64,000 bases of DNA from Alphaproteobacteria bacterium (GTDB lineage Bacteria; Pseudomonadota; Alphaproteobacteria; Bin95): assembly GCA_965215305.1 (NCBI GenBank), contig OZ244041.1, positions 1,257,689 to 1,321,688 of the forward strand. Reading direction: 5' to 3'. Of the stretch, positions 37,976 to 40,191 are shown in pieces. The notes below the pieces were generated by a model. It had not been told where the DNA came from. It made no database searches and was given only the letters and a program-made list of their open reading frames with translations. The first letter of the stretch is position 1. Every line of letters begins with the position of its first letter. Both the position numbers and the translations under genes were made by a program.

Positions 37976-38143
37976 CGCCCGGAAGGATAGTCCACCCCCG
38001 CCGCCGCCGATAGGGAGCGGCCGGGGTGGCGGTCGTTGGACAGAAGCGCTCGGCACCGATAGGAAGCACGCCCCTTGCGGTCCCGCTCCGGAAGCCGATA
38101 TTGTCAACACGACCCGACACCCAATTCTCTCCAACAGTCAGCT

Positions 38144-39685
38144 ATGCCCGCATACACGGATTCGTCCAGACAAAACCGCGTTGAACTAGCCGTCACCGAT
38201 TTCGGCCCAATTTCCCAAGCGGAAGTTGAATTGCGACCGTTGACGGTACTTGTCGGCCCCAGCAACACTGGCAAATCCTACTTGGCCATGTTAATTTACG
38301 CATTGCATAGATTTTGGAATGTAGAAGCGACCGGTTCGCTTTACTTGAGAAGAACCTTCAGAATATTTCGGCCTGGGGATTTCCAAGATGTAGCAGAGGA
38401 CGTTATTGAAGCGACGTTCTCATTTGCGAAACGGATCTTTGATGGCAGTCAGAGACAGGCACCTGCTGACAAGATTCAGATTCCCAGCCCTCTTGCAAAG
38501 ATACTTCGGAGGAGTTACGAACAACATGGTATACACCTCAAAGAGGAAATTTGTCGTTGCTTCGGTATTGAGGATACCGCAACACTAATAAGGCAAGGCT
38601 CTCGAACAAGTTCTAATATCGCCGTTTATGTAAGAAATTCAAAGAGTCATGTTCCTATCATACATCGGTTAGAGATCAGAAAAAACAATGAGAAATTTAC
38701 AACATCAATACCCGATGGAGTGCAGCTTACAATGGATATGGATTGGCAAAATAGAGGCGCGAAAATGTTCCAAAATATTATGGAGGCACAGAGTACACGA
38801 AGCAGTCAGCAGCAGAGGGAATTGCGTGATCTTTACACGTTTGAAATTTTTGAATCCTTGACACCCATTATTCATCCGTTAATAGTTGGCCCTTTGATAA
38901 ATGATGCATTTTATCTTCCTGCAGATCGCACCGGCGTTATGCATGCGCACAGTGTAGTAGTAAGCGCCCTGATTGGTAGTGCAGCAATGGCCGGCGTACG
39001 CCCTGCTACTAGAACACCAATGCTTTCTGGTGTTTTAGCAGATTTCCTCGAAGAACTAATCGAATTAGGCCGTCGCCCAAATAGGCGTCGAAAATCTCGC
39101 AGAAGCCCTGGAGACGGGATTGAAAATTCCATTCTAAGGGGAGCCATCGGTGTGGAAAAATCGGATGCCGTTGGTTATCCACACTTTACCTATAAGCCCG
39201 AGGGTTGGAAAGACAGCTTGTCTTTGGCCAACGCCTCATCCATGGTGTCGGAACTGGCACCAATCATACTTTACTTGCGCCATGTAGTTGGTTTTGGCGA
39301 TATGTTGATTATCGAGGAACCGGAATCTCACCTTCACCCGGCTATGCAAGTGCAATTGACGCGGGAGATCGCTAGGCTCGTCCGAGCCGGTATTAGAGTT
39401 GTCGTGACCACGCACAGCGAATGGGTCCTTGAGGAGCTTGCAAACATCGTTGGGCGGTCGGGCTTTCCGAAGCCCGAGACGGAGGCTCTTGGCAGCACAG
39501 CAGCGTTGCCCGCAAGCGATGTCGGGGTGTGGCTGTTCGAACCGAAGGAACGCCCCAGGGGGTCGGTCGTTCGGGAGATTCCGCTCGATGAGTCGGGGCT
39601 GTATCCAACAGGATTCGAAGAGGTCGCTGCTGCGCTCCACAACGATTGGGCGGACATTTCCAGCCGGAGCCAAGAGACGGATTGA
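38144..39685 (+). CDS. ABC-type/AAA_21-like ATPase (OLD/Septu-PtuA/AbiL-class), 513 aa
   Basis: N-terminal Walker A LTVLVGPSNTGKSYL. About 380-aa insert. C-terminal Walker B/D-loop block GFGDMLIIEEPESHLHP followed by VVVTTHSEWVLEEL (the H-loop THS). Low GC and atypical codon usage. Confidence 0.75.
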   Translation: MPAYTDSSRQNRVELAVTDFGPISQAEVELRPLTVLVGPSNTGKSYLAMLIYALHRFWNVEATGSLYLRRTFRIFRPGDFQDVAEDVIEATFSFAKRIFDGSQRQAPADKIQIPSPLAKILRRSYEQHGIHLKEEICRCFGIEDTATLIRQGSRTSSNIAVYVRNSKSHVPIIHRLEIRKNNEKFTTSIPDGVQLTMDMDWQNRGAKMFQNIMEAQSTRSSQQQRELRDLYTFEIFESLTPIIHPLIVGPLINDAFYLPADRTGVMHAHSVVVSALIGSAAMAGVRPATRTPMLSGVLADFLEELIELGRRPNRRRKSRRSPGDGIENSILRGAIGVEKSDAVGYPHFTYKPEGWKDSLSLANASSMVSELAPIILYLRHVVGFGDMLIIEEPESHLHPAMQVQLTREIARLVRAGIRVVVTTHSEWVLEELANIVGRSGFPKPETEALGSTAALPASDVGVWLFEPKERPRGSVVREIPLDESGLYPTGFEEVAAALHNDWADISSRSQETD

Positions 39686-40158
39686 TGGGGCTTGTCGAGT
39701 CGGTTCGCGGCAGAATCGATCCGGAATGCCTTGTTTCCAGAATACGGAAGCAAGGATGCACCGTGTCGCTGCAACACGCGCCCAGGAAGCGGTTGGTCGT
39801 CGATTTCGACAAGCCCGGAGCGCCAGTCGGCGGAGGCGGACGCAAATGCGATTACCTGTTCATTGCTGACAGTCCAGCAGGCAAGTCTGGTTGGATTGCG
39901 CCACTGGAATTGAAAAGAGGTGCCTTGCGAGCGAGTGAGGTCGTTGGACAGCTCCGTGCAGGCGCGGCGGCGGCGGAAAGAATGGTCCCTGGTTGCATGC
40001 TGCTCAGGTTCCGTCCGGTGGCTGCCTACGGAAGTCTCCACAAGCTGGAAAGGGCCGCTTTACGGGAGAACCGCAACAAGATCGCCTTTCGCGGACGCAC
40101 GGAGGCTGTCCGGCTGATGAAATGCGGGGACAGGTTGATTAAGGCGCTTGGTCCGTGA
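39685..40158 (+). CDS. small putative PD-(D/E)xK-fold nuclease (VRR-NUC/restriction-endonuclease-like), 157 aa, translationally coupled to the ATPase (TGATG overlap)
   Basis: Motif VVDFD...CDYLFIADSPAGKSGWIAPLELKRG fits D-Xn-(D/E)-x-K with hydrophobic beta-strands. Assignment is by motif only. Confidence 0.5.
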   Translation: MGLVESVRGRIDPECLVSRIRKQGCTVSLQHAPRKRLVVDFDKPGAPVGGGGRKCDYLFIADSPAGKSGWIAPLELKRGALRASEVVGQLRAGAAAAERMVPGCMLLRFRPVAAYGSLHKLERAALRENRNKIAFRGRTEAVRLMKCGDRLIKALGP

Positions 40159-40191
40159 CACCGGTCCCCGAAACCCGTTAGCCTCGCGCTC

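Follow-up and report, generated by a model that had tools for sequence, protein, structure and literature searches.

A probable anti-phage module of the WonAB class, formed by an ABC ATPase and a PD-(D/E)xK nuclease, between ubiE and mutM in an alphaproteobacterial genome

A low-GC islet with two overlapping genes

In the 64,000-nt window analysed here (positions 1,257,689 to 1,321,688, forward strand, of contig OZ244041.1 from the Alphaproteobacteria bacterium assembly GCA_965215305.1), the start codons of the housekeeping genes ubiE and mutM are separated by an interval (37976-40191) of much lower GC content, which raises the question of what this islet is and what its two genes do. In silico analyses indicate that it is probably a horizontally acquired module directed against phages or other mobile elements, in which an OLD-type ABC ATPase would act as the sensor and a PD-(D/E)xK nuclease as the effector, and that it is a relative of the WonAB and PD-T4-4 systems. 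This reading is based on the domains of the two proteins, on their experimentally validated homologues, and on the obligate pairing, purifying selection, mobility and Hma context described below.

A first-pass annotation had proposed a two-gene defence module lying in AT-richer DNA between an intact ubiE (minus strand) and an intact mutM (plus strand). Both flanks were confirmed by Pfam matches, and the defence reading is supported by Pfam, PADLOC, fold, homology and junction polymorphism. The compositional difference was also recovered: ubiE and mutM have a GC content of 0.72-0.74, against 0.417 for positions 38400-38999 of the islet and 0.58-0.61 over its right-hand part (39200-40199), and the deepest trough of the whole window at 1-kb resolution (0.479) falls at 38001-39000. 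The GC content at third codon positions (GC3) is 0.91 for ubiE and 0.90 for mutM, 0.38 for the segment of the ATPase gene named Insert 1 and 0.64 for the small gene. The islet holds two plus-strand open reading frames (ORFs) whose coordinates bear out the overlap noted in the first pass, the TGA of the first and the ATG of the second sharing one base (TGATG). The features of the module are as follows.

38075-38102, plus strand: promoter-like element, TTGCGG (38075-38080), a 16-nt spacer and GATATT (38097-38102), then TGTC
38144-39685, plus strand: OLD-type ABC ATPase, WonA-like, 513 aa (Pfam, PADLOC, motifs, AlphaFold/Foldseek and a family hidden Markov model, HMM)
38309-38893, plus strand: Insert 1 of the ATPase, residues 56-250, hypervariable and lowest in GC (0.42; GC3 0.38), proposed sensor region
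39685-40158, plus strand: predicted WonB-like PD-(D/E)xK (restriction-endonuclease-fold) nuclease, 157 aa, its start overlapping the ATPase stop

Both ORFs are taken to be real genes, not chance ORFs, because more than 5,500 homologues of the ATPase, 55 close homologues of the small protein and 1,161 related clusters were found, and because the ratio of nonsynonymous to synonymous substitutions (dN/dS) is 0.16-0.19. Public gene calls appear to be wrong at both starts, as judged from alignments. For the ATPase, the public call begins at TTG 38075 (536 aa), a position that overlaps a conserved promoter-like motif, while homologues begin at ATG 38144. For the small gene, the public annotation of 131 aa lacks the 26 conserved residues at the N-terminus, so that the overlap with the ATPase stop codon goes unseen, while the homologue alignment gives ATG 39685 as the conserved start; the exact 157-aa product is absent from the public record because of this shorter call.

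The large protein is an OLD-type ABC ATPase

Domain matches, motifs and a structure model together indicate that the large protein is an OLD-type ABC ATPase, in agreement with the OLD/AAA_21/AAA_15 architecture assigned in the first pass. It passes the Pfam gathering thresholds of AAA_15 (69.1 bits for a cutoff of 32.1, E 7e-19) and AAA_21 (54.1 bits for a cutoff of 27, E 3e-14), and its strong PADLOC matches are to defence ATPases only, the best being PD-T4-4_A (2.6e-34), PDC-M47A (2.2e-31), NsnB and AriA (2e-21), with further matches to HEC-01A/02A, Old, GajA and others. The three motifs quoted in the first-pass annotation are all present and, in an alignment of 35 homologues, invariant or nearly so: the Walker A GPSNTGKS (residues 38-45, with K44), residues 386-399 (DMLIIEEPESHLHP) and the block THSEWVLEEL (residues 423-432). 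The same holds for the PADRTG motif (R262), and the signature motif SS (S365-S366), the Walker B/D-loop IIEEPESHLHP (I389-P399, with E391/E392) and the H-loop TTHS (T422-S425, with H424) are invariant or at least 90% conserved. Insert 1 has a mean pairwise identity of 0.35, against 0.75-0.83 for the catalytic core. The AlphaFold model (predicted template modelling score, pTM, 0.82; mean predicted local confidence, pLDDT, 75) is of moderate confidence, low in parts of the inserts, and its top Foldseek match is PtuA of the Septu and retron I-A systems (E 2e-11), followed by SMC heads and RecN.

Since the pair adjoins mutM and the ATPase model bears a likeness to RecN and SMC heads too, a housekeeping role was considered in which a RecF/RecN/SbcCD-like ATPase and a nuclease would act in DNA repair together with mutM. 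The likeness to RecN and SMC, however, is that of a shared ABC fold and ranks below that to PtuA, and no NCBIfam housekeeping family claims the ATPase, the best scores (transporters, PtuA and others) being ca. 20 bits for cutoffs of 190-670. The base composition of the pair is foreign, the pair is missing from equally close relatives, and in other phyla it occurs in unrelated genomic contexts. The repair role that the mutM neighbour might suggest was rejected on these grounds, and we give it almost no credence.

The small protein is predicted to be a PD-(D/E)xK nuclease

Sequence and structure modelling support the prediction that the small protein is a PD-(D/E)xK nuclease. The model is confident (pLDDT 92) and displays the alpha/beta core of the restriction-endonuclease-like fold. 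Its closest structural matches are nearly all PD-(D/E)xK nucleases, the best being of restriction-enzyme type (including type II/IIS), McrC and nuclease domains of the Can2/Card1 type. D56 starts the core strand 57-61 while E75 and K77 lie in the next strand (69-80), which is the classical PD-(D/E)xK arrangement. These residues belong to the motifs D40-F-D42-K43, C55-D56-Y-L, E75-L-K77 and Q89-L; among 30 homologues, D40, D42, K43, D56, Y57, L58, E75, L76, Q89 and L90 are invariant, and C55 and K77 nearly so (K77 in at least 90%). Of the PD-(D/E)xK/VRR-NUC-like core suggested in the first pass, the PD-(D/E)xK part is thus borne out by the fold and by D56/E75/K77, while the VRR-NUC affinity is not, restriction-enzyme and Can2/Card1-type proteins being the best matches. 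The same annotation had set the protein apart from HNH and Toprim/DUF4435 partners and, in addition to its PD-(D/E)xK fold, no Pfam or PADLOC match to HNH, DUF4435-Toprim or Toprim was found.

Close relatives of the small protein numbered 55 in a set of 5.8 billion proteins, and a profile search of a library of 1.84 billion proteins (representatives of 50%-identity clusters) returned 1,161 clusters at E<=1e-3 and 722 at E<=1e-10. Pfam and NCBIfam hold no family for it, PHROGs matched at noise level only (E 0.086), a sequence search of PDB chains gave noise alone (ribosomal protein S3, E 0.3), and a fold search of BFVD gave nothing at E<=0.001, with weak matches to UL24 and other PD-(D/E)xK proteins.

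Profile searches link the pair to WonAB

Two-gene systems that combine an OLD-type ABC ATPase with a small restriction-fold nuclease have been described (PMC12137116, PMC9519451). WonAB, from the WASA-1 prophage of Vibrio cholerae, needs both genes, residues K34, R182, E300 and H333 of the ATPase and K71 of the nuclease; its phenotype is abortive infection, inactivation of the WonA ATPase lowers the nuclease level, and WonA is predicted to bind WonB through a C-terminal extension (PMC12137116). It has been linked to the "OLD-ABC ATPase + novel REase" operon of the ABC-ATPase survey of Krishnan et al. 2020, as cited in PMC12137116. PD-T4-4 was obtained from Escherichia coli ECOR58 by functional selection and described as "ATPase, nuclease" (Vassallo et al. 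2022; PMC9519451).

Ten WonB and five WonA homologues (Supplementary Table 4 of PMC12137116) served as comparators, together with three genuine PD-T4-4 pairs, one each from Vibrio phage 1.202.O, an E. marmotae IncX4 plasmid and K. pneumoniae pKPN6. An hhalign comparison of 177 members of the small-protein family with the ten WonB homologues gave a probability of 94.4% and an E value of 9e-8 over 80 columns, which span the catalytic core (R/K)CD(Y/F)L ... ELK ... Q(L/I). The HMM of these 177 members was also searched against a set of 13 real and 2,600 shuffled (decoy) sequences; no decoy scored as high as five of the WonB homologues and one PD-T4-4_B, the best WonB match being that of Runella (5.6e-8). 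The ATPase family HMM matched the five WonA homologues at 7e-24 to 4e-14, over the N-terminal Walker A and the C-terminal catalytic blocks.

Two alternative C-terminal tails (residues ca. 478-513) occur in the 35-homologue alignment of the ATPase, that of the window type (...LD-ESGLYP(S/T)GF.EVAAALHNDWADISSR) and another (...LDKETGLYPTDYDAVSEALYNES..IF.R.Q.). ATPases with the second tail may, by analogy, pair with a different partner, given the predicted role of the WonA C-terminal extension in binding WonB, and this might explain why searches returned far more ATPases (more than 5,500) than small proteins (55 in a word search).

Insertion polymorphism at the ubiE-mutM junction

The first pass had pointed to comparison of the ubiE-mutM junction as a check for presence/absence polymorphism, and this polymorphism is real. 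In three related genomes, the divergent ubiE and mutM genes lie 74-100 bp apart without the pair, and four other relatives (L002, L003, L064 and L094) carry the pair at the same site with flanking proteins 86-90% identical. Alignment of these junctions with the empty spacers defined the edges of the insert. The housekeeping flanks, which lie outside the module, the inserted segment and the empty sites are as follows.

37232-37975, minus strand: ubiE, demethylmenaquinone/ubiquinone methyltransferase (Pfam Ubie_methyltran, 8e-80; public call of 247 aa), left flank
38070-40167, plus strand: inserted segment of ca. 2.1 kb, edges placed to ca. 10 bp by comparison with the empty spacers
40192-41022, plus strand: mutM/fpg, formamidopyrimidine-DNA glycosylase (Pfam Fapy_DNA_glyco, 2e-36; H2TH, 1e-20), right flank
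L083, ubiE-mutM junction: empty site, MutM 91% identical to that of the window
L084/L085, ubiE-mutM junction: empty site, MutM 85% identical to that of the window
L088-L090, ubiE-mutM junction: empty site, MutM 86% identical to that of the window

By these comparisons, the islet is inserted, horizontally acquired DNA. Presence or absence of the pair does not track MutM relatedness, which implies that the pair has repeatedly been lost or exchanged, with homologous recombination acting through the flanking DNA. Conservation of the islet across a whole order, which the first pass had named as an argument against its own reading, is approached in part, since the pair is kept in the four relatives named above; it is nevertheless absent from equally related genomes, and its composition is foreign, so that this argument does not apply. 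The placement in Rhizobiales suggested in the first pass is not shown, the close relatives being unclassified Alphaproteobacteria known from metagenome-assembled genomes (MAGs) and the nearest named MutM that of Constrictibacter (67% identity).

No integrase or transposase was found in the islet, as already noted in the first pass, nor was a target-site duplication or terminal inverted repeat found when its edges were searched. The sole local repeat at the left junction is a direct pair of 17 nt (38002-38018 and 38051-38067, 49 bp apart; CGCCGCCGATAGGGAGC / CGGCACCGATAGGAAGC). This repeat doubles a CGATAGG motif that all relatives retain in their ubiE-mutM spacer, and the extra segment is common to the window and L094 and absent in L002, L003 and L064. 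Next to it, a left-end motif, TTGC(C/G)G-16 nt-GATATTGTC, was found in all occupied sites, L094 included, and in no empty site of the junction alignment. It looks like a putative promoter of the module's own, on the basis of this distribution; it was too weak to be listed in a consensus promoter scan, and a consensus scan of the islet gave no intrinsic terminator.

A second assembly (L001; ENA ERZ25070917, a 291-kb contig) carries an ATPase, nuclease and MutM identical to those of the window, with UbiE 99.2% and UbiB 99.8% identical. Lower-GC DNA, with an autotransporter and a DDE_Tnp_1_assoc ORF, lies 4-8 kb upstream in this assembly.

Selection and mosaic structure

Comparison of the window (38144-40158) with the same-site allele of L094 (380-2394; ATPase 89% identical) gave a dN/dS of 0.19 for the ATPase, the catalytic blocks lying at 0.06-0.11 and Insert 1 at 0.35, and of 0.16 for the nuclease, so that both genes are kept by selection. 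Synonymous divergence between the two alleles is 0.29 for the ATPase and 0.75 for the nuclease, a 2.6-fold difference that points to different histories for the two genes of one allele and to a putative recombination breakpoint near the gene boundary. Same-site alleles share ca. 88% of their nucleotides in the flanks, 70-89% in the C-terminal part of the ATPase gene and in the nuclease gene, and ca. 50% in Insert 1, where their GC content also differs widely and is at its lowest. This mosaic suggests that parts of the module, above all Insert 1, may have been replaced by recombination. A more far-reaching scenario, which we regard as tentative and rather doubtful, is that the pair forms a distinct lineage of the WonAB class, an immune gene shared among unrelated bacteria of one habitat, whose target range would be reset by cassette-like replacement of Insert 1 at a fixed site, much as specificity subunits are shuffled in type I restriction systems.

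Distribution and association with Hma

A scan of one genome per species, with patterns that favoured close relatives, detected 80 further loci (L002-L081), all in MAGs and none from a cultured isolate. They span at least 11 phylum-level groups and include Alpha- and Gammaproteobacteria, Chloroflexota, Latescibacterota, Poribacteria, Gemmatimonadota, Rhodothermales, Nitrospinota, Thermodesulfobacteriota, Binatia and Acidobacteriota. The ATPase gene lies directly upstream of the nuclease gene in essentially all of them, and in 68 of 74 the two genes share bases at their stop and start codons (as ATGA or TGATG). The AT content of the pair exceeds that of its flanks in 60 of 62 loci, by a mean of 5.5 points.

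Among 143 immediate neighbours, the commonest were DUF1156/HmaB (12 by PADLOC, 10 by Pfam), HmaA (6), NOV_C (6) and helicase domains (5). AbiJ, DUF4276 and additional AAA_15/21 ATPases were present as well, and transposases were rare (2). A full-length hmaA or hmaB adjoins the pair in 14 of the 80 loci, and in L012, L016, L033, L037 and L057 the pair is flanked by hmaA on one side and hmaB on the other, all on one strand, as in L012 (2742-11403) and L033 (2476-11275) where hmaA (SNF2/DEAD helicase) and hmaB (DUF1156 adenine methylase) were both identified by PADLOC at E=0. Position within an Hma locus has been validated as a predictor of defence function, and no embedded family is more common there than ABC ATPase pairs (bioRxiv 10.1101/2024.01.29.577857). 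The repeated occurrence between hmaA and hmaB suggests that the pair is functionally connected to Hma.

Extra copies occur in two loci. Between hmaA and hmaB of L016, the whole pair is present in two tandem copies (6505-8465 and 8639-10602) with ATPases 43% and 42% identical to that of the window, and in L062 (12576-13901) a second ATPase copy is located ca. 4 kb downstream. Both could represent paralogous expansion with different sensors.

Many loci bear taxon labels of the marine sponge-symbiont type: Candidatus Poribacteria (4 loci), Ca. Poriferihabitaceae, Ca. Latescibacterota, Dehalococcoidia, Gemmatimonadota and Nitrospinota. The empty-site relatives come from records named ROBB21 and, according to one paper, a Poriferihabitaceae MAG is connected with a sponge genome project. 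Restriction to sponge or other host-associated communities is a lead that these labels offer, and the cross-phylum, apparently habitat-wide spread in MAGs bears on how defence genes are shared in such communities.

Proposed mode of action

A mode of action can be proposed from the conserved motifs and from studied relatives. Both proteins would be produced from one transcript, the observed gene overlap making translational coupling likely, and an ATPase dimer may hold the nuclease, by analogy with WonAB models and PD-T4-4 mass photometry. The hypervariable Insert 1 might then sense a cue of phage infection, which could be a protein or an abnormal nucleic acid, whereupon ATP binding or hydrolysis at the composite sites formed by the conserved Walker A, signature, Walker B and H-loop motifs would switch the complex. 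The nuclease, with a putative metal site at D56/E75/K77, would cut nucleic acid (DNA, or RNA/tRNA) and stop phage replication, and the infected cell would probably be killed or arrested, as in the abortive infection of WonAB.

Several observations weigh against this defence reading. The clade is known from genes alone, its presumed role being drawn from homology and context, and in the window the module stands by itself amid housekeeping genes, with no neighbouring defence gene and no Hma. Two of the same-site copies look inactivated, which means that some lineages do not need the pair: in L003 (1697-3226), an in-frame stop occurs at ATPase codon 64 while the nuclease is full length (a sequencing error being possible), and in L064 (6441-9398), the ATPase is frameshifted near residue 318 (an assembly error being possible), the nuclease frame matches the family up to residue 87 only and then continues into unrelated sequence, resulting in a truncated product, and, with the locus rearranged, mutM is no longer adjacent. 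No relative of the small protein was detected by tblastn on 72,556 plasmids, and an IMG/VR scan of viral contigs gave no relative; a search of 50,697 phage genomes with the ATPase gave a single match, at 22% coverage only, to a bona fide PD-T4-4 pair. The sequence links of the nuclease to WonB and PD-T4-4_B are remote: hhalign with small profiles (three PD-T4-4_B or three WonB) was weak (E 0.0085-0.011, probability <5%), the link to WonB being clear only with the 177 family members and ten WonB sequences, and the window protein alone matches PDC-M47B at E 0.075. Finally, purified E. coli PD-T4-4 left all 11 DNA substrates uncut in vitro (10.1101/2025.07.10.664194), so that RNA or tRNA targets are possible.

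This last result also bears on whether the pair could be an ATP-dependent restriction-like system that attacks invading DNA (modified or unmodified) directly while the cell survives, as McrBC-type type IV enzymes do. Such a system would agree with the type II/IIS restriction enzymes and McrC among the best structural matches of the nuclease, and the many homologous modules found inside the methylase-containing Hma would fit a methylation-sensitive backup nuclease. The islet, however, has neither a methyltransferase nor a DNA-binding specificity domain, its ATPase is of the ABC type, not a GTP-dependent McrB-type AAA+ protein, and WonAB, the closest validated relative, acts by abortive infection. 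Together with the failure of PD-T4-4 to cut DNA, this makes direct restriction improbable.

A selfish addiction cassette of the toxin-antitoxin kind, in which the ATPase would restrain a toxic nuclease and the pair would persist without any anti-phage benefit, appears less probable still. The Pfam text on AAA_21 does read "putative AbiEii toxin, Type IV TA system", the lower nuclease level upon ATPase inactivation in WonAB would fit, and the pair is tightly coupled and moves horizontally. Nevertheless, a full-length nuclease next to the interrupted ATPase of L003 is hard to reconcile with an ATPase antitoxin, sequencing error aside; clean empty sites exist, every studied relative protects against phage, and embedding in Hma fits defence.

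A second low-GC patch in the window

The GC content falls to 0.497 at 60001-61000, where a 307-aa ORF without Pfam or PADLOC match (59746-60669, minus strand) lies directly downstream of a gene for a metallo-beta-lactamase-fold protein with an RMMBL domain (60706-61851, minus strand; Lactamase_B_2, 1e-10). This patch may be another small acquired module.

Comparison with known ATPase-nuclease systems

The first-pass annotation could not assign the pair to a named system; it is now seen to be a relative of WonAB, PD-T4-4 and PDC-M47. An OLD-family ABC ATPase as large subunit is also shared with Septu (PtuAB), PARIS (AriAB) and Gabija/OLD: among solved structures, PtuA is nearest to the ATPase model (Foldseek, E 2e-11), and AriA, GajA and Old are among its PADLOC matches (1e-9 to 2e-21). 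In these systems the effectors differ, being HNH in Septu, DUF4435-Toprim in PARIS and a fused Toprim in OLD/Gabija, in contrast to the predicted PD-(D/E)xK effector of the window.

PDC-M47 is the only PADLOC system matched by both proteins of the window (ATPase to PDC-M47A at 2.2e-31, partial), and PDC-M47B models are matched by 17 of 30 small-protein family members (best E 2.2e-4). These matches are partial and weak. PDC-M47 is itself a PADLOC candidate, predicted from its embedding in BREX, DISARM and type I restriction-modification loci, for which no experimental support was found; the homologues of the window module are embedded in Hma.

PD-T4-4 has the same architecture and gene order, and its genes likewise overlap or abut. 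The ATPase finds its best PADLOC match in PD-T4-4_A (2.6e-34), and PD-T4-4_B and the small protein can be aligned with their catalytic motifs in register (hhalign E 1.6e-4, HMM E 3.5e-4). The three bona fide PD-T4-4_A members, however, score 376-870 bits end to end against their best PD-T4-4_A model while the window ATPase scores 117 bits in two separate stretches; PD-T4-4_B is ca. 210 aa long as compared to 157 aa, and its models gave no match at E up to 1 with any of 30 small-protein family members. Assignment to PD-T4-4 in the strict sense was rejected, as there is no full-length match to the A model and none to the B model. Matches to PADLOC models being so weak, the clade is probably missed by PADLOC detection.

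WonAB shares with the window a two-gene operon in which the ATPase comes first and a small nuclease (ca. 140-170 aa) second, the ATPase motif forms GPxxxGKS, (I/L)PAxR(S/T), SSxxxE (signature), IEEPExHL(H/Y/F)P and TTHS, and the nuclease core pattern (R/K)CD(Y/F)L ... ELK(G/R) ... Q(I/L). By motif, K34, R182, E300 and H333 of WonA correspond to K44, R262, E392 and H424 of the window ATPase, and the lysine mutated in the WonAB nuclease has a conserved counterpart in K77. Sequence similarity is nonetheless remote and limited to the catalytic cores. With respect to the published WonA numbering, the window ATPase is ca. 70 residues longer in Insert 1 and has ca. 12 more residues between PAxR and Walker B; the window nuclease lacks the N-terminal Cys-rich segment of several WonB homologues and has an invariant DFDKPG motif of its own. 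WonAB is prophage-borne, whereas the window clade was found on neither phages nor plasmids.

A pair that fails the PD-T4-4 models and matches WonA and WonB profiles is, on this profile evidence, a divergent, unannotated branch of the WonAB or "OLD-ABC ATPase + novel REase" class. It is not a fundamentally new kind of immune system, since the class is already known, and the current picture of bacterial immunity is unchanged by the finding. What the pair adds to the poorly understood WonAB/PD-T4-4 class of ABC-ATPase-plus-nuclease immune systems is a large clade whose nuclease has no Pfam, NCBIfam or meaningful PHROG match, and an allele series at a single chromosomal site in which the hypervariable Insert 1 offers a lead on how such ATPases sense.

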